This document shows positions 41,940 to 52,459 of a stretch of DNA of 53,054 nucleotides, one piece after another. Source of the DNA: Planctomycetales bacterium. Lineage in GTDB: Bacteria; Omnitrophota; Gorgyraeia; Zapsychrales; Zapsychraceae. Position numbers and translations under genes: made by a program. The notes below the pieces were generated by a model. That model had not been told where the DNA came from. It did not search any database and worked only from the letters and a program-made list of their open reading frames with translations. Positions within the stretch are counted from its first letter, which is position 1; every line of letters starts with the position of its first letter. Location of the stretch: assembly GCA_005239675.1 (NCBI GenBank), contig SBBO01000014.1:1-53054 (forward strand), given 5' to 3'.

Positions 41940-42674
41940 ATGATCATCGCCCAAAAAATTTCTAAATATTTCGGCAAGGTCGAGGCGTTAAAGGACATCT
42001 CTTTTGAAATCGGTCAGGGAGAGATTGTCGGGTTTTTGGGAAAAAATGGCGCAGGCAAGACAACCCTCATGCGGATCTTGACCTCATACCTGACACCGAA
42101 CGCTGGTCGGGCATTTATCGCTGGTAAAGATGTTACCCAAAAAGGAGTAGCGGTACGCCGGCACATTGGGTATCTTCCCGAGACACCGTCTTTGTATCCG
42201 TATATGACCGTGCGGGAATATCTGAAATTCGCCGCCCAGCTCAAGGATATCCCTGTGCGCCATATCGGTCGCTCGATCGCCAAGGTCCTGGATGACTGCC
42301 GGCTTTCGTATGTCCAGAACACATTGATCGCCCATCTCTCTAAGGGGTATCAGCAGCGCATCGGCATTGCCCAGGCCATTATCCATGACCCAGCGGTCTT
42401 GATTTTAGATGAACCGACTAATGGTCTCGATCCAACCCAGATCCAGCAGGTGCGCAAGCTCATTAAGGACATTGAACATCAACGTACCGTCCTTTTAAGC
42501 ACCCATAATCTCTTTGAGATCGAGAAAATCGCCCGGCGTATCCTCATCATTAATCGTGGGCAGCTAATCAAAGACCAATCCCTAGAAAGTCTTTTAAAGG
42601 AAGAGGGTGCCACGGGTCTGGAAGAAGTATTCCTAAAACTAAATCCTCCACAGGTCGAACGCAGCGATGACTAA
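41940..42674 (+). CDS. ABC transporter ATP-binding protein, GldA-like
   Basis: GKNGAGKT, LSKGYQQR, LILDEP, STH. Confidence 0.93.
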   Translation: MIIAQKISKYFGKVEALKDISFEIGQGEIVGFLGKNGAGKTTLMRILTSYLTPNAGRAFIAGKDVTQKGVAVRRHIGYLPETPSLYPYMTVREYLKFAAQLKDIPVRHIGRSIAKVLDDCRLSYVQNTLIAHLSKGYQQRIGIAQAIIHDPAVLILDEPTNGLDPTQIQQVRKLIKDIEHQRTVLLSTHNLFEIEKIARRILIINRGQLIKDQSLESLLKEEGATGLEEVFLKLNPPQVERSDD

Positions 42675-43380
42675 TAAAATTTTAGTTATAGCCAGAAAGG
42701 AATTGTTCACTTATTTTAAATCGCCGATTGCGTATATCATTCTTGTCGTGACCACTAGCGTCTTTAATATTTTTTTCTATATGATCATCGATCAGAATAG
42801 GGAAGCAACGTTGCATGATATCTTTCAGGTGATGGAATTCATGTTCGTTTTTTTGGTGCCGCTTCTGACGATGCACGTTTTTGCCGAGGAAAAAGCAACA
42901 GGCACCATGGAATTCTTAATGACCACCCCTACCACCAACACTGACATTGTCCTGGGCAAATATTGGGGGAGTTTTATTTTTTTTAGCCTAATGATGGTGA
43001 TGCCTGCTGTTTATTATTTGATCATCGAATATTTTGGCCAGCCGGACCGCTGGGCCGTGGCCACGGGCTTCTTCGGACTGTGGTTGGAAGGGGCGTTCTT
43101 TGTCGCTATTGGTATCCTAACCTCGTCTTGGGCACGCAGTCAGGTGGTGGCGGCGATCAGCGCGTACGCGACCATTTTTTTATTGTACTTTTCGGTCAGT
43201 TTCTTGAAATATTTTAGTGGTCCGGCGGTAGAGGTCATTCGCTATCTTGGCACGTTGGGGCATGCCGCGAATTTTGCCGTTGGGTTGATTACCCCGGGTG
43301 ATATCGCCTATTACGTGAGTGGAATCATTTTTTGTCTCTTTTTGACGCGCATCAGCATGGAGAATAGGCTATGGCATTAA
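42667..43380 (+). CDS. ABC-2 permease, GldF-like
   Basis: KELFTYFKSPIAY, EEKATGTMEFLMT; six TM helices. Confidence 0.9.
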   Translation: MTNKILVIARKELFTYFKSPIAYIILVVTTSVFNIFFYMIIDQNREATLHDIFQVMEFMFVFLVPLLTMHVFAEEKATGTMEFLMTTPTTNTDIVLGKYWGSFIFFSLMMVMPAVYYLIIEYFGQPDRWAVATGFFGLWLEGAFFVAIGILTSSWARSQVVAAISAYATIFLLYFSVSFLKYFSGPAVEVIRYLGTLGHAANFAVGLITPGDIAYYVSGIIFCLFLTRISMENRLWH

Positions 43381-44945
43381 AGAATAGGTGGCGGCTCTTT
43401 GCCCTGGGGGCGGTGTGTCTTATGTGCGCCGTAGGGTCAGCATATATTAAGATGCAGGTAGGGTGGACCGAGACCTTCGCGCTATTGGCCGGGACCATGG
43501 CTATTGTCACTTGTCTTTGGTTGTTACGGGACAAAAGGCGATCGGGGAGACGGCCTTGGATATATATCTATGGTCCATGGATTGCGGTTATTTTCCTCAT
43601 TAGCAGTGTGATCGCTGGGATCAACTATCTCGCTTATCGTTGTCCTTGGCGTTGGGACTTAACCCAGACTCAACAACATACCCTAACTGATTATACACAC
43701 CAGGTCTTGGCGCAGCTTCAAGATGACGTAAATATAACCGCTTTTTTCGCAGGATTACCGGCAAGATATCTTGAAGACATGTTTCAGGAATATGAACGTA
43801 ATTCCAACAGGCGTGTCAAGACGGACATCCTGGATCCTTTGGTCGATATCGGCCAGGCCGCCCAGTTCGGGAACATCATCAGCAGCAAGGAGAATAAGGT
43901 CATTGTTCAATCTGCCAGTGGCCGTAAAGACGTAGATTTTACAGATAGTCCTTTAACCGAAGAACAGCTGACCAACGCACTCTTGCAGGTGACCCGTACT
44001 GAGCGTCATGCGTATTTTCTCACGGGACACGGTGAATACAGAATCAATAGCGAAGAGGACAAAGGTCTGAAGGTCTTCACCCAATTATTAGAGAAAAACA
44101 ATATCCAAAGCCACGATTTGATACTAACCAGTGGGGGGATTCCTGATGATTGTGACATCCTGATAGTGGCCGGACCGCAGGAGCCATTGTCAGAGGGGGA
44201 AGAGGCAGCAATCGAAGACTATCTAAAGGCCGGAGGTGATGCCTTATTCCTTATTGAGCATACCGTTATCACGACACCCGACAAGGCCTTGCGCGAAGAG
44301 GAATTGAACAGAAATCCTTCCTTAAACGCAATCTTGACCCAGTGGGGTGTGCGCATCGCAAATGACATTGTGGTGGATCTGGCCAGCCATGCCAGTGGGG
44401 ATGTGGGCAGTCCAGCCACCCGTAATTATCCCGAGCACGACGCCATTGTCCAGGGATTAGATTACACGTTTTATATCCGTCCGCGCTCGATATCGGTACT
44501 CGGTAATCGCCGTGAAACCGTGCGGGTGGCGCCGCTTGTGATGACAGCCTCTCCAAGGGAGAGTTGGGGAGAGACCAATCGGAACCTAACGGTTAAATAC
44601 GATGACATCCTTGACCGGCCCGGCCCGGTGCCCATTGCCTTTGTCATCATGGAGCCCAAAGAAGACAATGAACAATCCGATACACGTATTGCAGTCTACA
44701 CCGATGCGGATTTTTTAAGTAATGCCTTTATTAAGCAGTATAGTAATGCCCAGATGGGGCTTAGTGTTGTTAACTGGCTTTCTGAGCTGGATTATCATGT
44801 CTTTCTTGATCGCCAAATCATTACGGTGGGGCGGCTGGATTTGACTAGCCAAGAGAAACGGGTGGTGGTTGTAATTCTTTTTGCCTTGCCGTTTTTTATT
44901 GTTAGCGCTGGTGTGATGGTCTGGTTGCAAGGAAAGGAGGTATAA
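43371..44945 (+). CDS. GldG-like ABC auxiliary component
   Basis: N-terminal TM helices, WDLT...TL, YFLTGHGE, IVAGP, DADF..N, C-terminal TM helix. Confidence 0.88.
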   Translation: MALKNRWRLFALGAVCLMCAVGSAYIKMQVGWTETFALLAGTMAIVTCLWLLRDKRRSGRRPWIYIYGPWIAVIFLISSVIAGINYLAYRCPWRWDLTQTQQHTLTDYTHQVLAQLQDDVNITAFFAGLPARYLEDMFQEYERNSNRRVKTDILDPLVDIGQAAQFGNIISSKENKVIVQSASGRKDVDFTDSPLTEEQLTNALLQVTRTERHAYFLTGHGEYRINSEEDKGLKVFTQLLEKNNIQSHDLILTSGGIPDDCDILIVAGPQEPLSEGEEAAIEDYLKAGGDALFLIEHTVITTPDKALREEELNRNPSLNAILTQWGVRIANDIVVDLASHASGDVGSPATRNYPEHDAIVQGLDYTFYIRPRSISVLGNRRETVRVAPLVMTASPRESWGETNRNLTVKYDDILDRPGPVPIAFVIMEPKEDNEQSDTRIAVYTDADFLSNAFIKQYSNAQMGLSVVNWLSELDYHVFLDRQIITVGRLDLTSQEKRVVVVILFALPFFIVSAGVMVWLQGKEV

Positions 44946-44946
44946 C

Positions 44947-45171
44947 GTGTTATTTTTATTTATCTTTATATTATCTTTAATATTGGGTATTTTGATCTAT
45001 CAATTTCCCCTCCAGGTGATTCGCCTTCAGCAGCAGTTTTACGCCTGCATCAATTGGCGCATGGAGCCGATCTCCATGGACAAAGAAATCCTTAACACAA
45101 GGTTGATGGGTTGCTTTCTTTTGGCGACAACCCTATTTATTGGTATTTTGGGGAACTTGTCAAGCCCCTGA
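44947..45171 (+). CDS. small two-TM membrane protein
   Basis: 74 aa with two hydrophobic segments; starts 1 nt after the previous stop. Confidence 0.6.
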   Translation: MLFLFIFILSLILGILIYQFPLQVIRLQQQFYACINWRMEPISMDKEILNTRLMGCFLLATTLFIGILGNLSSP

Positions 45172-45328
45172 CAGCCGCAATATACCGTATTTTCTACGCG
45201 TTTTCTTAACGGATAATATGTAAATATTGTAATAGCAGTTAGTTACAACGCTATTATTTATATCTATTCCCACCAAGAAAGCGCTTTCAAGTCCCAGGAA
45301 TTCTCATAGAGGTTTAAGCGCCAGAATG

Positions 45329-45337
45329 TGTTATACT
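45329..45337 (+). promoter_or_regulatory. extended -10 promoter
   Basis: TGTTATACT upstream of a gene with an AAAGGAGG RBS. Confidence 0.45.
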
Positions 45338-45423
45338 TACAATGGGAGTCAATCTCCCCAAGAAATCAATATTGACGTAGATTCATTTTTGAACAAAATA
45401 AACCAAGAAAGGAGGGGATTAAG

Positions 45424-46095
45424 ATGTACGATGCCATTATGTTTGAACCCTTGATGGATATGATGGCGCGTGTGGCGCATTTTGTCCCCACTTTGTTCTT
45501 GGCATTGGTAATCCTAGTTATCGGCTACTTATTAGCCCATTACGTAGAAAAATTATTAACGTCGTTTTTAAAAGTTATAGGGCTGGACAAAGTGATGGAC
45601 AAAATCGGGATCACGCATATCCTTAAAGTAGGTGAGGTTAAACATAAACCAAGCGAATTGATTGGCCTGTTGACGTATTGTGTTTTAATCATCACCACGT
45701 TAATTATGGCGGTCAAGGTCTTTGGTCTAACCTCGGTATCAGCAATGCTCGATTCGGTGTTGACATTTATTCCCAGTGTCATTACCGGCATCTTGGTATT
45801 GATGATCGGTATGCTCATTGCTAAAGTCATATCAATCATCGTCTACGTCGTTGCCAAGAATGCGGATATGCCCCTAGCGGATACAGTAAGTCGCTTGTGC
45901 AAATACGCGATCATGGTCTTTGTCGCGATCGTATTTCTCAAGGAAATCGGCTTCGTTAGCTTATTTGAGGGCCATTATACGATTTTCATCGGCGGTATCG
46001 TTTTTGCCATTGCCTTGGCTTTTGGGTTAGCAGGCAAAGACATTGCATCACGATATCTCGATGTTTTAAGCGTCAAGAGATCGGACCACAAATAA
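45424..46095 (+). CDS. CmpX-like / MscS TM-helix repeat membrane protein, no cytoplasmic cage
   Basis: Two FVP/FIP...LVIG/LMIG repeats; AIALAFGLAGKD. Confidence 0.85.
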   Translation: MYDAIMFEPLMDMMARVAHFVPTLFLALVILVIGYLLAHYVEKLLTSFLKVIGLDKVMDKIGITHILKVGEVKHKPSELIGLLTYCVLIITTLIMAVKVFGLTSVSAMLDSVLTFIPSVITGILVLMIGMLIAKVISIIVYVVAKNADMPLADTVSRLCKYAIMVFVAIVFLKEIGFVSLFEGHYTIFIGGIVFAIALAFGLAGKDIASRYLDVLSVKRSDHK

Positions 46096-46123
46096 GTCTA
46101 CCAAAGCCGCGTGAGTTGTGCTC

Positions 46124-46167
46124 ATCCCACCGCTTCTATGTCAGGTAGAGGGGCGGTGGGATTTTTT
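46124..46167 (+). terminator. intrinsic terminator
   Basis: ATCCCACCGC...GCGGTGGGAT stem ending in a T-run. Confidence 0.85.
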
Positions 46168-46232
46168 GTCCCCGCAAAATATTTAATTTAATATTTTTAT
46201 TTCCATTTTTATTTGTTATTATATTTATTAAT

Positions 46233-46817
46233 ATGCAACGTGAGGAGATTTATGATCATTTAGCTCAGGTGTATCTGGGTAAACGTAAAGACCCAGAGTC
46301 ACACAAGACAAGGCATTTTCATGCATGGTTCTTAATTAATGTCTTGATTGCGCTGATTGTTTTTTCTAGCGTCTTTTATGGATTGACGGCCTTCCTGACG
46401 CGACGGACTTCGTTTAGAGACAACATTATCTTTGTATTGCACAACGGGTTGGTACGCCTTGATTATGATTTTAACGGTCATGTGGCACCGATTAAATTCC
46501 TGGCCTTGGATGCACCAGCTATTGATGCCAGCCATTACAAAAACATCCAGTTTTCTATCCGGGTCAAAGACAAGGGGAATCCAGGACCTGTTAAGGTCGT
46601 TATTACCAGCAACAAGAATGAGACCGCGTCCCACTATATCCAGGGAGTTGATTTTGCCTGGCAGGACTTTCGTATCCCGCTGCAGGAATTTAAAGGGATA
46701 ACAGACTGGGGAAGCCTTAAGGCCATTTCATTTATGGTGGAATCATGGAATATGGAGAAGAAAAAGGGAATAATCCTGATTGATAATATTTGTTTTTCCG
46801 GTGAAAAAGGAGTCTGA
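46233..46817 (+). CDS. membrane-anchored protein with a CBM11/CIA30-like beta-sandwich domain
   Basis: Short basic N-terminus, one TM helix, then DASHYKNIQFSIR...WQDFRIPLQEF...G.ILIDNI.F. Confidence 0.72.
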   Translation: MQREEIYDHLAQVYLGKRKDPESHKTRHFHAWFLINVLIALIVFSSVFYGLTAFLTRRTSFRDNIIFVLHNGLVRLDYDFNGHVAPIKFLALDAPAIDASHYKNIQFSIRVKDKGNPGPVKVVITSNKNETASHYIQGVDFAWQDFRIPLQEFKGITDWGSLKAISFMVESWNMEKKKGIILIDNICFSGEKGV

Positions 46818-46821
46818 TCTT

Positions 46822-47964
46822 ATGAGAATCATCGCCATCGCCAATCAAAAAGGAGGCTGCGGTAAGACGACAACAGCCATTAACTTAGCCGCGGCATTGA
46901 GCAAAAATGGGCGCCGGGTTTTACTGATCGATCTTGATCCGCAGGCACACGCGTCTCTGGGGCTCAACATCGATAGTCAGGACAGCATGTACAATGTGAT
47001 CTCCAGCTTGACACCGCGTAAGCTTCGCATTGAGAATATCATCCGGCGCGTTGAAGAGAGTTTTGACATGGTCCCCTCGAATGTCCTGGTGGGAACCCTC
47101 GAGCAAGAACTTGCTGATGAAATAGGCCGCGAGTTGAAACTGACAGGGATCATCGCAACGATTGCCTCTCGGTATGATTATATCCTCATCGATTGCGCGC
47201 CGAGCCTCGGGATCTTGACGGTCAATGCCCTGCGGGCCAGCAGTGAGGTGATTATTCCGGTTGAGACTAGTCGTTTCTCGATTCAGGGCTTGGAACACAT
47301 TATCGATATTATCCATTTGGTGCGCGACCGGTTAAACCACCCCATTGAGTACCGGGTCCTGATTGCTATGTTCGATTCCCGACTGCGCCATTCCTTTGCG
47401 ATGCTGCAGATGTTTAAAGATAGATTCAGCCAACTGCTTTTTGACACGATTATTCATACTAACGTCAAGCTCAGAGAGTCGGTGGTGCTTGGTCAGACGG
47501 TCGCCGCGTATGATAAATATAGTCGCGGCTCTAAAGATTATTTCACGCTTGCCAAGGAAGTTTTGTGCGCTGAGGCAAAAGAGGGGCCAATGGTAACGGC
47601 AGTGCCCAAAGAGGCTCGTTGGGGACGTGCCGCAGGGCTTACATTTTCGGAAACAATGCGGGAGACCATCGAGCAGGAAGCTAAGGATGTTCAAAAATTA
47701 GCATCAGTACGTTTCTCTTGCAAGGCGCAGGACGCCAAATCTGTTTTTGTCACGGGCAGTTTCAATGACTGGGCGCTTGATGACAACTGCCGGCTCAAAC
47801 AGCTTAATGGTTGTTGGGAGGTTGTGCTTCCTTTGAAGCCGGGTATTTATCAATATCAGTTCATCATCGATGGAGTCTGGAAAGAAGATCCGCTTAACCC
47901 GCGCAAAGAGCGAAATTCTTTCGGTGATATCAATTCTTTAATTGAGGTCGGCACTGATGGTTAG
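46822..47964 (+). CDS. ParA/Soj-family ATPase fused to a C-terminal CBM48 (AMPK-beta-type glycogen-binding) domain
   Basis: NQKGGCGKTT, DLDPQ, DCAP; C-terminal VFVTGSFNDW...W...PGIYQYQFIIDGVWKEDP.N...NSFG..NS; AAGGAG RBS. Confidence 0.9.
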   Translation: MRIIAIANQKGGCGKTTTAINLAAALSKNGRRVLLIDLDPQAHASLGLNIDSQDSMYNVISSLTPRKLRIENIIRRVEESFDMVPSNVLVGTLEQELADEIGRELKLTGIIATIASRYDYILIDCAPSLGILTVNALRASSEVIIPVETSRFSIQGLEHIIDIIHLVRDRLNHPIEYRVLIAMFDSRLRHSFAMLQMFKDRFSQLLFDTIIHTNVKLRESVVLGQTVAAYDKYSRGSKDYFTLAKEVLCAEAKEGPMVTAVPKEARWGRAAGLTFSETMRETIEQEAKDVQKLASVRFSCKAQDAKSVFVTGSFNDWALDDNCRLKQLNGCWEVVLPLKPGIYQYQFIIDGVWKEDPLNPRKERNSFGDINSLIEVGTDG

Positions 47965-48289
47965 GAGACCTTCCTATGCTATTGATGATTCACAGATTCT
48001 CGAAGGTAAGAGTTTTGCTGTCTTGGCCTATCTTTCGATTTTTTGTATTATCCCGCTAATCTTTAAAAAAGATAATCCTTTTGTCCTCCAACATAGTAAA
48101 CAGGGTTTGGTCATCTTCTTAGGGCAAGTGGCCACCTTGATCCTTTCCATCCTTTTGGGGCCCTGGATATTCCGTTTAGGGGTATTTGTCTTAGGGGTTG
48201 TCGCTTTTTTAGGGATTATTGCTGTCCTGCAAGGACGAATGATTCGATTCCCAGTCATTTCTTCGCTCGCCGATAAGATAACCATGTAA
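47957..48289 (+). CDS. small membrane protein, DUF4870/Tic20-like
   Basis: FAVLAYL...IIPL...FV..HSKQG...GII..LQG...PVI; overlaps the parA stop. Confidence 0.75.
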   Translation: MVRRPSYAIDDSQILEGKSFAVLAYLSIFCIIPLIFKKDNPFVLQHSKQGLVIFLGQVATLILSILLGPWIFRLGVFVLGVVAFLGIIAVLQGRMIRFPVISSLADKITM

Positions 48290-48418
48290 TAATGAGTCTT
48301 TAGGTCGCCTCTTCACCTGCATCCTATTTTGTAGAAAACCCTATCGAAAAAAGATTTAATTCCAGGATATTTTTGTGTAGAATAGGTGAGTTTTAAAAAT
48401 GATAAGGCAGGAGGATAT

Positions 48419-50056
48419 ATGTCTGATGCGTTAATATTAAAACGTTTAGCAAAATTTCACGGCCGCAAGGGCCCACTCCTTTTGATTATTTTAGATGGTG
48501 TGGGCATCGGTAGACGCGATGAGAGTGACGGCGTCTTTATGGCCAAGACACCATGTTTAGACCGGCTGATGCATGGCAAGCTCTACACCACCCTCAAGGC
48601 CCACGGCAGGGCTGTGGGGATGCCTTCGGATAGCGATATGGGCAATAGTGAGGTGGGTCACAATGCCTTAGGTGTTGGCAGGGTCTTTGACCAGGGGGCC
48701 ACGCTGGTGTCCCGGGCGATTGCGAATGGCAGTATTTTTAAAACCCCTATTTGGAGAGAATTAGTTGCCCGGGCCAAGCGCCCTGGGCAGACTTTTCATT
48801 TTATCGGATTGTTGTCCGATGGCAATGTTCATTCTCACACGGATCATTTATATGCACTGCTACGCCAATGCGCCCAAGAAAAGGTTCAGAGAGTAAGGAT
48901 CCATGCGCTTTTGGACGGCCGCGATGTCCATGAGAAATCTGCCTTGGATTATATTGCCAAGACCGAAGGGGTATTAACTGAACTTAAAAAACAAAACGGG
49001 GTTGATTATCGTATCGCCTCCGGCGGCGGGCGGATGGTGGTGACGATGGATCGTTATGATGCCGATTGGACTATTGTCCAGCGTGGCTGGCAGGCCCATG
49101 TCCTCGGCCAAGGGCGTCAGTTTAGTTCAGCCTCACAGGCCGTGCAGACTTATTACGCCCAGGACCCCCAGATGACAGATCAGTATCTGAACTCTTTTGT
49201 GATTGCCGAGAGCAACTCACCCATCGGCACGATTGAAGATGGCGACACAGTTGTTTTTTATAATTTTCGCGGTGACCGGGCGCTTGAGCTTTCGACTGCC
49301 TTTGAGGCGAAAGATAAATTTACTCGATTCAACCGCGAACGCCTTCCGGATGTTTTATTCGCTGGCATGATGGAATATGATGGAGATCTGCATGTTCCTA
49401 AGCATTATCTTGTGACACCCCCGCAGTTCGAGCGTTGCATAAGCCATTATCTATGCGCTAATGGTATAACGACGTTCGCCGTCTCCGAAACTCAAAAATA
49501 CGGTCATGTGACATACTTCTGGAACGGAAATAATTCTGGATACGTTGATCAGGCATTAGAGACATATGTGGAAATTCCATCGGATAAAATCCGATTTGAT
49601 AAGGCGCCACGGATGAAGGCTGAGGAAATTACACATAAGACAATTGAGCTTTTAAGAACCGGCCGTTATCAATTTGGGCGGATTAACTTTCCTAATGGAG
49701 ATATGGTGGGGCATACCGGTGTCGAGCGGGCGATCATCGCGGCGGTCGAGTGTGTCGATCAATGTACCGATGAGCTTATCCGTGTCGTTGACGAACTGGG
49801 CGGGATAACGCTTGTCTTGGCAGACCATGGCAACGCCGATGAGATGTTCACGGTCAAGAACGGTAAGAAAATCGTTAGTACCGCCCACTCTCTCAATCCT
49901 GTTCCGTGTGTGATTGTCGATTCCGGCTATCGGGGTGAATATAAATTAGCCCAACTTTCCCAAAGGGGTTTATCCAATATCGCAGCAACACTATTTAATC
50001 TCTTGGGATTTGAGAAACCGCAGGATTATGATCCTTCGTTGATTGAATTTCTCTAG
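48419..50056 (+). CDS. gpmI: 2,3-bisphosphoglycerate-independent phosphoglycerate mutase
   Basis: ILDGVG, MGNSEVGH, DGRD, NFRGDR, ETQKYGHVT, NGDMVGH, DHGN, TAHSLNPVP. Confidence 0.96.
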   Translation: MSDALILKRLAKFHGRKGPLLLIILDGVGIGRRDESDGVFMAKTPCLDRLMHGKLYTTLKAHGRAVGMPSDSDMGNSEVGHNALGVGRVFDQGATLVSRAIANGSIFKTPIWRELVARAKRPGQTFHFIGLLSDGNVHSHTDHLYALLRQCAQEKVQRVRIHALLDGRDVHEKSALDYIAKTEGVLTELKKQNGVDYRIASGGGRMVVTMDRYDADWTIVQRGWQAHVLGQGRQFSSASQAVQTYYAQDPQMTDQYLNSFVIAESNSPIGTIEDGDTVVFYNFRGDRALELSTAFEAKDKFTRFNRERLPDVLFAGMMEYDGDLHVPKHYLVTPPQFERCISHYLCANGITTFAVSETQKYGHVTYFWNGNNSGYVDQALETYVEIPSDKIRFDKAPRMKAEEITHKTIELLRTGRYQFGRINFPNGDMVGHTGVERAIIAAVECVDQCTDELIRVVDELGGITLVLADHGNADEMFTVKNGKKIVSTAHSLNPVPCVIVDSGYRGEYKLAQLSQRGLSNIAATLFNLLGFEKPQDYDPSLIEFL

Positions 50057-50067
50057 GGGATGCTCTC

Positions 50068-50784
50068 ATGACATGGCAATGGGCGGGGATAGTCGTGGCG
50101 GTTATAATTCTCATCGGCTGCTTTTGTGTCTTCTTTGATCATGCTGTCTTGACGCGCCGTGGAACCGTCTATCGGGTTAAGACCTCTCAAAGGAAGGTCG
50201 CCATTACTTTTGATGACGGACCATCGCCTGTTTGGACGCCCCTTATCTTAGATGAGTTAAAAAAAGCCAGTGTCAAGGCGACATTTTTTATGATCGGCCA
50301 TCATGCCCGGAAATACCCCGCCATCGCACGCCGCGTCGCGCAGGAAGGTCACACGATTGGTAACCACGGTTATGCCCACAGCGTCGTTTTGTATTACACC
50401 CCCGCCGAACTCGAGGAGGAGATTAAATACACGGAACAGGTGATCCGAGAAGTGACCGGTCAGACAACAAAGATTTTTCGTCCTCCCAAGGCGTGGTTAA
50501 ATCATTTCAGCAAGAATAAAATTAAAGAGATGGGCTATGAGACAGTCTTGTGGTCGCTTAATTCTAAAGATTGGGTAGGGTTCCCCTATCGACAGATTGC
50601 CCGTCATCTGGTGTCTCGCGCGCAAAATGGCGATATCCTCCTTTTCCATGATAGCGGCAATGTCTTTACGCCAGAGGGAGGCGATCGCCATGGAACCGTT
50701 AAGATCATACCGCTTTTAGTGAAGGGACTGAAAGAAAAGGGATTGGAATGTGTCTCCCTCAAGGAGTTGATGAATGATTTCTAA
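50068..50784 (+). CDS. polysaccharide deacetylase (CE4/NodB), membrane-anchored
   Basis: TFDDGP, HGYAH, FRPP, DW, LFHD; N-terminal TM helix. Confidence 0.92.
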   Translation: MTWQWAGIVVAVIILIGCFCVFFDHAVLTRRGTVYRVKTSQRKVAITFDDGPSPVWTPLILDELKKASVKATFFMIGHHARKYPAIARRVAQEGHTIGNHGYAHSVVLYYTPAELEEEIKYTEQVIREVTGQTTKIFRPPKAWLNHFSKNKIKEMGYETVLWSLNSKDWVGFPYRQIARHLVSRAQNGDILLFHDSGNVFTPEGGDRHGTVKIIPLLVKGLKEKGLECVSLKELMNDF

Positions 50785-52459
50785 AAATGATACGTTCGAG
50801 ACAATGGGCCACGCAAGGCTTTTAGCCATGCTTGCCTTTGTTGGATACTTTTTTTTAATGATCGGTAACGGGATTATCAGCTTAACGCATCCCGATGAAG
50901 TTTTTTATGTCCAGACCGCCAAGGAGATGATTCGACACAAGAGCTGGCTGGTGCCGATCATCTTTGATAGTCCGCAGTTTGAGAAGCCCATATTATTTTA
51001 TTGGCTATTGGCAGGGGCGATTAAACAATTTGGTGAAACAGCTTTTGTGGCCAGGTTCTGGCCGTCTTTTTTTGCGATCATCGGTATTGGTGTGACGTAT
51101 TTGATCGCCTGGATCTTATTTGGAAAGAAAAGAACTGCTTTTTTGTCGGGGTTAATCCTTGCTAGCAGTTTTATCTATCTTGCCTTGGCCCGCGCTGTCC
51201 TGACCGACATGGTTTTTTCCGTGTGGGTTGTCATGGCTATTACTCTATTTTGTTGGGCATATCATTGCCCGCAACGGGCCAATAGGGCAATAGTCCTCTG
51301 GGGGGCGGTCATGGGTTGTGCTGTCCTCACCAAAGGGCTGCTGGGGATTGTATTGCCGGGGGTGGTCATCCTAAGCTTCTTAATTTTTAAAAATGACTTG
51401 GTTTTTTTAAAAAGATGGTCGGTCATCTTAGGGGCGGCAGTTTTCTTTGCGATCGCCGTGCCGTGGCACGTCTTGATGTATCAATGGCATGGGCAAGGAT
51501 TTGTGCAGGAGTATTTTTACAATATTCATCTGCGTCGGATCCTAGAGGCCGAACATGCCCGACTGGATAATGGGTACTTTTATCTGTGGCTTATGTTTGC
51601 CGGTGTTCTGCCGTGGAGCTTTTTTTGGCCAGCCACCGGCCATTGGTTGTGGAGACAATTGCGCACAAAGGCCCTCCAGCATGACCGCCTGGTTTTTCTC
51701 TTGGCATGGATCGTGGGCATATATGCGATCGTTCAGTTAGCACACTCTAAACTGGCCAGCTATATCTTTCCTGTCTTTCCCGCCATTGCAATCCTGCTCG
51801 CTCGTTTTCTGGATCATGAGTTGACTATGGTCGCTCCAGCTGGTCGCTCCAAGGTCTTGACTGTCTGTGGTCATGTCTTTATGGGATTTTTGGGGTTATT
51901 GATACTGGGCGCATGGATTGCTGTTTATCGCTACCGGGATTTTGTGCCGCAAATTCAGGGTGTTTATGTCCTGACCTTCCTTTTGATTCTTGTTGCTACT
52001 TTGGTATTCGTGTTTAATCGCCGCAGGGCGTATGTTGCGATGCTTTGCGCGCATACCGGTCTAACGGCGGTGTTATTGATAACGCTATTTTGGTCAGTGC
52101 CGCTTGCGGAGCGATGGGTCTCCTGCAAAGATATCAGTGATCTTTTTAAGACCATTGACCATTCCGATACTGTTGTCTTAGCGAGCAAGTTTTACGTCCG
52201 AGGTATCCGTTATTACACTGATCGCGCCATGGCCGTGATTGATATTAACGGCAAAGGGTTCTTTAGTCCTCATGCCATACCGTTTTTGAATACCGATCAG
52301 AAAGTTTTAGATTTTTTGGCAACTCAGTCGGTCACCTACGCCATTGTTAAGGAAGGTAACGTTGAGGATCTCAGGCGTATCACGACGGGCCACCCTTACC
52401 ACCTAGAAGAATTACAGGGTATTGGTGGGAAATATATCTTGCGTATCTCGAGGATTTGA
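50774..52459 (+). CDS. ArnT-like (GT83/PMT) lipid-phosphate-dependent glycosyltransferase
   Basis: PDEVFY..TAKEM, FEKPILFYW, LTKG, PWH, SKLASYIFP; many TM helices. Confidence 0.9.
   Translation: MISKNDTFETMGHARLLAMLAFVGYFFLMIGNGIISLTHPDEVFYVQTAKEMIRHKSWLVPIIFDSPQFEKPILFYWLLAGAIKQFGETAFVARFWPSFFAIIGIGVTYLIAWILFGKKRTAFLSGLILASSFIYLALARAVLTDMVFSVWVVMAITLFCWAYHCPQRANRAIVLWGAVMGCAVLTKGLLGIVLPGVVILSFLIFKNDLVFLKRWSVILGAAVFFAIAVPWHVLMYQWHGQGFVQEYFYNIHLRRILEAEHARLDNGYFYLWLMFAGVLPWSFFWPATGHWLWRQLRTKALQHDRLVFLLAWIVGIYAIVQLAHSKLASYIFPVFPAIAILLARFLDHELTMVAPAGRSKVLTVCGHVFMGFLGLLILGAWIAVYRYRDFVPQIQGVYVLTFLLILVATLVFVFNRRRAYVAMLCAHTGLTAVLLITLFWSVPLAERWVSCKDISDLFKTIDHSDTVVLASKFYVRGIRYYTDRAMAVIDINGKGFFSPHAIPFLNTDQKVLDFLATQSVTYAIVKEGNVEDLRRITTGHPYHLEELQGIGGKYILRISRI

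Follow-up and report, generated by a model that had tools for sequence, protein, structure and literature searches.

A ParA ATPase carrying a CBM48-type domain: a candidate link between alpha-glucan and the nucleoid in Omnitrophota

What would a ParA-type ATPase do with a carbohydrate-binding module (CBM) attached to its own C-terminus? ParA/MinD ATPases position DNA, carboxysomes, chemoreceptor arrays and division sites, and we know of no system that positions glycogen, the commonest bacterial carbon store. The question is raised by a gene at positions 46822–47964 (+ strand) of a 53,054-nucleotide stretch of contig SBBO01000014.1 (the whole of which stretch is referred to here as the window), which encodes a ParA/Soj-type domain followed by a linker and a CBM48 domain. 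Judged from its sequence, this gene is the central member of three co-oriented, tightly packed genes that form an intact "ParA-CBM" module, comprising a transmembrane partner, the Soj-type ParA-CBM48 protein and a small membrane protein. Our preferred reading, which we advance tentatively and with somewhat less than even confidence, is that the module is a housekeeping ParA switch, which would tie alpha-glucan to the nucleoid and/or the membrane and be reset by a ParB-like peptide of the partner.

The fusion gene runs from an ATG, with an AAAGGAG box read from the sequence approximately 10 nt 5' of it, to a TAG at 47962–47964, and encodes 380 amino acids. An AlphaFold2 (AF2) model of the protein, based on an alignment of 29 family members (A1), has a mean predicted local distance difference test (pLDDT) score of 89.6, and divides into a ParA fold (residues 1–253), a disordered linker (255–274), a helix (277–291) and a beta-sandwich (294–376). 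The deviant Walker A ATPase domain of the ParA/Soj type (residues 1–254, positions 46822–47583, +) is delimited by AAA_31, Foldseek and A1, with Pfam matches to AAA_31 (E 4.3e-54, 183.6 bits against a cut-off of 27, residues 1–175) and CbiA (E 8.9e-20). The linker (pLDDT <50) and helix follow at 47584–47697 (+) in the AF2 model and A1; linker length and sequence are highly variable in the family, such that the linker columns of A1 are mostly gaps and some relatives have inserts of up to ~100 residues. The CBM48/AMPK1_CBM-type beta-sandwich (residues 293–377) occupies 47698–47952 (+), as defined by Pfam, phmmer and AF2, and matches AMPK1_CBM (E 1.6e-14, 54.3 bits against a cut-off of 26.8, residues 303–377) and CBM_48 (25.2 bits, cut-off 22.4). 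The intact reading frame with ParA domain, linker and CBM48 domain that an earlier note on this DNA had described is thus borne out by Pfam, AF2, Foldseek and phmmer; the Pfam families it had expected (AAA_31, CbiA and AMPK1_CBM) are all three matched, and every motif it had quoted is found in the translation. No NCBIfam model reaches its cut-off for the fusion protein, the best being ParA_partition (116.4 against 180). We also considered that the fusion might be an assembly artefact, and rejected this because it is seen in hundreds of independent assemblies.

The ATPase half is a close relative of chromosomal Soj/ParA, with the motifs KGGCGKTT (residues 10–17), FDSR (184–187) and NVKL (214–217). 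Signature K10, G11, G12, C13, the Walker A K15, T16, D39 and the Walker B D124 are each invariant in A1 (29/29). Its best solved relatives are ParA 8ray_B (E 1.2e-48), HpSoj 6iub and TtSoj 1wcv, and Foldseek likewise places Soj/ParA structures at the top for this part of the model (template-modelling score by target 0.88–0.94, with pLDDT >90 over most of residues 1–250). With its catalytic residues invariant and its likeness to Soj so close, the ATPase looks active. It shares with the chromosomal proteins (TtSoj 1wcv/2bek, HpSoj 6iub, ParA 8ray) the deviant Walker A motif and the fold, at 33–39% identity, and retains basic residues at the equivalents of BsSoj R189 and R218. It differs from them in having a C-terminal linker and CBM48 domain, in lacking an adjacent parB gene or origin linkage, in falling in a clade separate from Omnitrophota Soj, in a Thr at the position of HpSoj K227, and in the Cys of KGGxGKT, which is found in 29/29 fusion proteins where the canonical Soj proteins compared have Thr or Val.

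The CBM half carries the motifs GSFNDW (312–317), YQYQFIIDGVW (343–353) and DP (356–357), together with N365, G368 and N371, and its strands (294–376) are modeled at a pLDDT of ~86–97. In phmmer comparisons with the solved CBMs of AMPK beta (2f15, 1z0m), the match to AMPK beta2 2f15 has an E value of 4e-10, and W317, W353 and G368, which correspond to W100, W133 and G147 of AMPK, are each invariant in A1 (29/29). Unlike in AMPK, the domain sits on a ParA ATPase rather than on a kinase scaffold. As it scores over both Pfam cut-offs and retains the Trp and Gly equivalents throughout the family, the CBM looks functional. The fusion carries the sole AMPK1_CBM-type domain found in its own assembly by a profile search of the contigs.

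How widespread is this architecture? The fusion is not a rarity: it is a phylum-wide family in Omnitrophota, found in further phyla as well. All 120 of the best database relatives carry both PF13614 and PF16561 (59–77% identity, 364–456 aa), and those that are named are "Candidatus Omnitrophica/Omnitrophota" proteins from metagenome-assembled genomes (MAGs), annotated as "AAA family ATPase" or "chromosome partitioning protein". The survey counts given here rest on 151 Omnitrophota genomes, sampled evenly across the phylum. Of these, 150 have a ParA-like match and 124 have AMPK1_CBM (with seven CBM-negative genomes inferred from family tallies). The fusion is found in at least 87 of the 151, as one match over both domains in 75 and as both matches in one open frame in 12. 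Of the 30 families listed, 29 either have the CBM throughout or lack it throughout, only f10 being mixed, and identity to the window protein is 58–63% within the same order, 39–55% within the same class and 32–42% in other classes. The genes around the fusion are of housekeeping type, and synteny is kept at class level, with obg-proB-proA-nadD ... mraZ-rsmH in the other class and porin-GH57 in the window's own class. In Omnitrophota, the fusion behaves as a housekeeping gene: it is family-uniform, syntenic and part of the single-copy core. One genome of the other class, G014, has two ParA-CBM fusions, at C48:7737–8822 and C27:19771–20865, in open frames of 374 and 410 aa.

Beyond the phylum, a scan of species-representative genomes with family patterns yielded at least 600 stretches, which code for a relative in 596 cases. 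Among the 80 top-ranking stretches, 76 match through residue 372 or further, and the taxa in their titles include Myxococcota, Thermodesulfobacteriota, Phycisphaerae, Tepidisphaerales and Gammaproteobacteria, as well as Rokubacteria, Zixibacteria, Eisenbacteria, Margulisbacteria and Auribacter. Both domains are likewise present in each of the 120 top-ranking relatives retrieved for a Myxococcota fusion, and every name given among them is that of a MAG. In a FastTree phylogeny, 110 fusion rows stand apart from 8 canonical Omnitrophota Soj rows (support 100) and group mostly by taxon. Rows titled "uncultured Planctomycetales/Planctomycetia" (L043, L050, L057, L059, L060, L066, L067, L076 and L080) lie within Omnitrophota clades, beside near-identical Omnitrophota rows. 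These titles are probably imprecise submitter labels, and the Atlas label "commonest Planctomycetota" therefore needs caution.

The association of this CBM type with glycogen, which the earlier note had drawn from the domain family, is supported by gene context, both through stand-alone CBM–glgA pairs and through GH57 neighbors. Many Omnitrophota genomes carry a stand-alone CBM gene (~95–140 aa) as a second, paralogous CBM, and in at least 56 genomes (56 of the 90 listed) such a gene lies 6–250 bp (median ~30) 5' of a GlgA match on the same strand. Both this count and the 87 fusion genomes are lower bounds, with a further 269 ParA, 73 CBM and 157 GlgA matches outside those listed. Examples in which the stand-alone CBM is immediately 5' of glgA are G128:C42, G110:C75 and G076:C18, and loci L138–L141. 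In G102:C107, a gap of ~20 bp separates the CBM match from the GlgA match, which is on the same strand; the CBM frame is 614 aa long with one TAG inside the match. In a genome of the window's own order (G079), the immediate neighbor of the stand-alone CBM is a GT4 glycosyltransferase, for which the best NCBIfam model is a glycogen-synthase subfamily at a sub-cut-off score. In family f6 (G055:C95, G073:C46, G008:C14, G137:C40 and G085:C27), the GlgA frames are ~1025–1038 aa, about double the usual length, which suggests a fused glycogen synthase. In 17 own-class loci, the gene directly 5' of the partner gene encodes a GH57 protein (E 4.6e-65), for which no NCBIfam subfamily was resolved.

At the level of whole genomes, GlgA is present in 123 of the 124 CBM-positive genomes and in 87/87 listed fusion genomes, while the CBM is absent from 10 of the 11 GlgA-negative ones. 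The window's own genome (a 1.32-Mb assembly in 50 contigs, 86.81% complete) encodes GlgC (472.8 bits, over the cut-off), GlgA and a phosphorylase-like gene. The co-occurrence with glycogen genes that the earlier note had proposed to examine is therefore seen, for GlgA, in every listed fusion genome, although the test is a weak one because GlgA is near-universal in the phylum.

The architecture is already on record. A "ParA-CBM system", consisting of a ParA of branch ConB5 with a C-terminal AMPK1_CBM, was described in silico in a preprint of October 2026 (bioRxiv 10.64898/2026.10.19.760177), such that the statement of the earlier note that it knew of no characterized example is true for experiments and not for the architecture as such. 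This preprint is all that our literature search returned, with no experimental paper found that deals with a protein of the ParA-CBM48 type or with the positioning of glycogen by a ParA. According to the passages of the preprint that describe the system, variant 1 has an upstream protein with a single transmembrane segment and a second, extracytoplasmic CBM, and variant 2 has an extra degenerate or inactive ParA-like gene 3' and an inactive restriction endonuclease. By its gene content, the locus is a clear member of variant 1, with the gene at 46233–46817 as the upstream transmembrane CBM protein, whereas the extra 3' gene of variant 2 agrees with what is seen in loci of the other Omnitrophota class and of further phyla. 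An hhalign comparison of the other-class 3' partner family (A3) with A1 gave a probability of 18% over 23 columns, which leaves the impression of a degenerate ParA unconfirmed.

In the same passages, a sporadic distribution and a fast-diverging CBM are taken to indicate an immune sensor (bioRxiv 10.64898/2026.10.19.760177). On this account, the lectin-type CBMs (the cytoplasmic CBM48 and the extracytoplasmic CBM of the partner) would sense a carbohydrate change linked to infection, upon which ParA would multimerize on nucleic acid and block a phage or other selfish element. This fits with the placement of the ParA in an immunity-associated branch, with partner bodies that differ among lineages, and with the spread of the family over many phyla. 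Within Omnitrophota, however, which is the sole group tested here and has no occurrence in the main text of the preprint, the premises of the immune account fail. The CBM is not sporadic, given the family-uniform distribution described above; it does not evolve fast, with a pairwise identity of 43.9% compared to 48.5% for the ParA domain (406 pairs) and with its Trp and Gly residues invariant; and housekeeping synteny is kept at class level. Furthermore, no defense genes are evident beside the module in the window, and PADLOC returns a P-loop-level match only (E 3.4e-6, residues 6–39) and none for the partners. Compared with the system as the preprint describes it, the Omnitrophota gene is thus a family-uniform, syntenic member of the single-copy core, with conserved CBM residues and a glgA/GH57 context. 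A housekeeping role accounts for the Omnitrophota data better than an immune one, and we consider the immune sensor unlikely.

If the module has a housekeeping role, what would control its ATPase? The earlier note had inferred that the cargo-binding module is built into the ATPase, where related systems usually employ a separate adaptor. The fusion is not adaptor-less, however: a conserved partner gene with a ParB-like N-terminal peptide adjoins it. The partner gene (46233–46817, +), recognized from its homologues, AF2 and Foldseek, ends 4 nt before the ParA start and encodes 194 aa, with no Pfam or NCBIfam match. Its product comprises a conserved N-terminal peptide (residues 1–16), a Lys/Arg-rich stretch, a transmembrane helix (27–56) and a beta-jelly-roll (64–191), and the partner alignment (A2) shows the same order, with the N-terminal consensus M-x-KKEIYEHLA-x-x-YLD followed by a Lys-rich stretch, a transmembrane helix and a beta domain. 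The AF2 model (pLDDT 84.8) has as its top Foldseek matches CBM11 1v0a (E 4.6e-8) and 6r3m, and the beta domain resembles the jelly rolls of CBM11, CBM8, CBM28 and CBM30. From the positive-inside rule, the N-terminus is predicted to be cytoplasmic and the CBM11-like domain extracytoplasmic. A homologue lies immediately 5' of the fusion in 11/11 close loci (L009–L019), and the partner family is found in 33 of 101 clustered loci.

On its 3' side, the fusion gene overlaps by 8–23 nt a gene for a small membrane protein (47942–48289, +), of 115 aa if translated from the TTG at 47942 or 110 aa from the ATG at 47957. This protein has no NCBIfam match, and its similarity to DUF4870 (E 0.004) is under the cut-off. 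A homologue is found directly 3' of the fusion in 8 of the 11 loci L009–L019 and in 20 of the 101 clustered loci. Loci of the other Omnitrophota class, and of other phyla, have instead a conserved neighbor that is 3' and soluble, of ~230–500 aa, with bodies that differ. We note that neighbor counts outside Omnitrophota are unreliable because of the crude calling of open reading frames (ORFs) in high-GC loci, the fusion ORF itself being called in 86 of the 101 loci.

These soluble 3' partners have a common N-terminus, for example KKLKRGLKDLSPLF or LGRGLSDVSHIFLS, and the N-terminal peptides of both partner types resemble the N-termini of Omnitrophota ParB proteins (K-x-LG[KR]GLSALI and K-x-LG[KR]GL-x-AL). 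When the two peptide types are written as motifs, [DE][HY][LI]A..[YF][LFI] occurs in 31 of 76 ORFs adjacent upstream, 0 of 71 adjacent downstream and 0 of 592 others, and [KR]GL.[DE][LIV]S.[LI]F in 0 of 76, 10 of 71 and 0 of 592, respectively, both motifs having been defined post hoc on the same sequences as were counted. In Helicobacter pylori, the N-terminal 50 residues of HpSpo0J raise the ATPase activity of HpSoj 3.1–3.7-fold (PMC6393308). We infer that the N-terminal peptides of the partners may be ATPase-controlling elements of the ParB kind, a feature that does not appear in the passages of the preprint concerned with the system (bioRxiv 10.64898/2026.10.19.760177). A complex prediction with two ParA domains, ATP and partner residues 1–36 gave no answer (score 0.10, mark 0.32), and is not used here either way.

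The membrane partner could also be taken to point in another direction, namely to a BcsQ-like organizer of an envelope glucan complex made up of an outer-membrane porin, GH57, the transmembrane CBM11-like partner and the small membrane protein, which would couple periplasmic glucan uptake or turnover to cytoplasmic alpha-glucan without moving granules on the nucleoid. The predicted extracytoplasmic CBM11-like domain and the second, translationally coupled membrane protein 3' suit this arrangement. So does the gene content of many own-class loci (L020–L022, L043–L067), in which an Alginate_exp-family porin (~475 aa, E 2e-19; clusters c6 and c5, in 10 and 12 loci, respectively) lies 5' of GH57 and the partner. 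BcsQ, which acts in cellulose secretion, is likewise a SIMIBI ATPase with a link to a polysaccharide, and Pfam CBP_BcsQ matches the fusion protein at 53.8 bits, over its cut-off of 21.3. The likeness to Soj is nevertheless far stronger (BcsQ structures reach a template-modelling score by target of 0.77–0.81, compared to 0.88–0.94 for Soj), BcsQ has no CBM, and there are no bcs genes nearby. In the window, moreover, the module adjoins neither a porin nor a GH57 gene, and the other Omnitrophota class and other phyla pair ParA-CBM with soluble partners. An envelope organizer is therefore, in our view, quite unlikely. A Lys-rich protein of ~139 aa (cluster c2) is encoded 3' of the module in 23 own-class loci, and is not adjacent in the window either.

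Returning to a housekeeping switch acting on glycogen, this reading calls for an ATPase that can bind the nucleoid. BsSoj R189 and R218 are the two residues reported as necessary for DNA binding, and in HpSoj the DNA-binding patch consists of K199, K227, K230 and K247, with Lys or Arg at K227 described as highly conserved (PMC6393308). We mapped these residues by alignment to TtSoj and HpSoj, and took the family columns from A1 (n = 29). BsSoj R189 (TtSoj R182) corresponds to R187, with Arg in 25/29, and BsSoj K201 (TtSoj R194) to K199, with Lys or Arg in 25/29. HpSoj K230 (BsSoj R218, TtSoj R211) corresponds to K216, with a basic residue (Lys or Arg) in 19/29, HpSoj K227 (TtSoj R208) to T213, with a basic residue in only 4/29, and HpSoj K247 to Y233, flanked by K232 and R235. 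The earlier note was hence correct as to the positions of R187 and K216; at the third conserved position of the patch stands T213. By this mapping, the putative basic DNA-binding patch is incomplete and less conserved among distant members.

Taking these features together, the proposed cycle would run as follows. Upon binding ATP, ParA would dimerize and associate with the nucleoid through the partly conserved basic patch, and the two tethered CBM48 domains of the dimer would hold alpha-glucan, in the form of either glycogen granules or nascent glycogen. The N-terminal peptide of the partner would then trigger ATP hydrolysis and release. The net result would be that glycogen stores are anchored, spaced or partitioned relative to the nucleoid and the membrane, or, alternatively, that the module reports glycogen status. 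Glycogen binding, DNA binding and positioning are all activities that we infer for the fusion protein. McdA/McdB positions carboxysomes, and orphan ParA cargo systems use the nucleoid, with a partner that resets the ATPase. Our model is alike in that an orphan ParA would position a cytoplasmic, carbon-related body and be reset by a partner; this is a proposed likeness, and we do not claim membership of that group. Unlike McdA (6non/6nop), the window ATPase is fused to its presumed cargo module, has a membrane partner, and shares 20% identity with McdA in Foldseek.

Several observations weigh against this model. The body of the partner is predicted to be extracytoplasmic, and is superfluous if granules are positioned purely in the cytoplasm; partner bodies also vary from lineage to lineage. 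In the CBM, the position of AMPK beta1 K126 is taken by Q346, with Q344 flanking it, and in the isolated beta1 CBM glycogen binding is abolished by K126Q, as it is by W100G (reviewed in PMC6274970). Gln is found here in the window protein and its closest clade (all 10 sequences), and Lys or Arg in 19/29 family members (the A1 column reads Q 10, R 4, K 15). Glycogen positioning leaves two main facts unexplained, namely this Gln and the extracytoplasmic domain of the partner. As to DNA binding, T213 replaces the highly conserved Lys/Arg of HpSoj K227, with so few basic residues at this column of the family, and K216 is not kept in the other Omnitrophota class. As to glycogen, a profile search of the contigs returned no branching enzyme from the own assembly, 17 genomes have GlgA and yet no CBM, GlgA occurs in 140 of the 151 genomes, which as related genomes are not independent, and in family f16 the stand-alone CBM adjoins lipid A genes and not glgA. 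Finally, the preprint interprets the same architecture as an immune sensor (bioRxiv 10.64898/2026.10.19.760177).

A module that reads glycogen without moving it could also act on the cell cycle, in that CBM48 would sense reserves and tune a Soj-like output on replication or division, with no cargo being moved. The AMPK CBM is a glycogen sensor (PMC2642990), in the other class the division cluster, which begins with mraZ-rsmH, follows a few genes 3' of the fusion, and in the closed genome G149 the fusion is at 50% of the chromosome, opposite dnaA, which is a single case. Other genes intervene before mraZ, however, neither the window nor the own class shows a link to division genes, and there is no evidence of an interaction with DnaA or FtsZ; we hold such a checkpoint to be very unlikely.

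There remains the question of whether the window protein might simply be the chromosomal Soj of its organism. As the earlier note had stated, no parB is adjacent: both neighbors of the fusion gene, of 194 and 115 aa, are membrane proteins with no ParB match. Across all contigs of the own assembly, there is in fact no ParB_N match, a tblastn search with two ParB proteins from the same order was empty, and there is no DnaA (PF00308) match. ParB_N is nonetheless present in 144 of the 151 sampled genomes and in 86 of the 87 listed fusion genomes, the own genome being the sole exception, and all 5 same-order relatives have ParB, away from the fusion. Relatives have a short canonical parA beside parB, distant from the fusion gene. 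In the closed genome G149 (1,974,201 bp), dnaA is at 316–801, parAB at 1,969,914–1,971,139 and the fusion at 987,053–988,123, and in the closed genome G143, which has no fusion, parAB is likewise ~4 kb from dnaA. Because the own assembly lacks both dnaA and parAB, which lie within ~4 kb of each other in these closed relatives, its origin region, carrying parAB in relatives, is most likely unassembled. The situation that the earlier note had named as damaging to its proposal, in which this would be the only, origin-linked Soj of the genome, is thus superficially present in the own assembly, and is best explained by incompleteness. That the window protein is the organism's only chromosomal Soj with an extra domain, serving chromosome segregation, is scarcely credible: it is the sole ParA-sized AAA_31 protein in its assembly (three of the four matches lie in frames of 730, 364 and 702 aa), no ParB was found there and some records call its relatives "chromosome partitioning protein", but the assembly is incomplete and dnaA is likewise not found, ParB is present nearly throughout the sample, and canonical Soj forms a separate clade with a support of 100. 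The window protein is rather an additional ParA beside the normal ParABS system. In two genomes, an ORF of 155–185 aa lies directly 5' of the canonical parA (L126 2346–2813 (–) in G149 and L127 2334–2891 (–) in G103); its N-terminal segment looks like that of a LAGLIDADG homing endonuclease.

The wider surroundings of the module can be described briefly. On its 3' side, a gene at 48386–50056 encodes a cofactor-independent phosphoglycerate mutase (iPGM; 556 aa, iPGM_N and Metalloenzyme), followed by a polysaccharide deacetylase and then a PMT/ArnT-like glycosyltransferase, and the annotated genes at 42667–52459 are all on the + strand. Over the window (1–53054), the GC skew is positive in all 2-kb bins and the cumulative skew climbs steadily, with no origin or terminus signal. 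A promoter and terminator scan of 45900–48600 yielded 4 promoter-like and 2 terminator-like sites, compared to shuffle means of 3.8 and 2.8, and thus no signal. A search of sequencing runs returned DNA runs from groundwater or drinking water only, two of which may come from the source sample, and no RNA run.

What, then, does the locus mean for these bacteria? A glucan-binding-type module has been placed on the ATPase itself and kept across a phylum of mostly uncultured, small-celled bacteria and in several other phyla. Two incompatible readings, housekeeping organization of glycogen and immunity, meet in the same protein family, and the conserved N-terminal peptide on otherwise unrelated partners offers a handle on the control of the ATPase. 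At its fullest extent, which we regard as possible and yet doubtful, the module would be the first dedicated machine for segregating and positioning a storage polysaccharide, in which a nucleoid-riding ParA grips glycogen by its CBM48 domain, a transmembrane partner resets it, and the periplasmic CBM11-like domain of that partner couples the sensing of external glucan to the placement or inheritance of internal glycogen; it would be an ancient system, common to Omnitrophota, Myxococcota, Phycisphaerae and further phyla.

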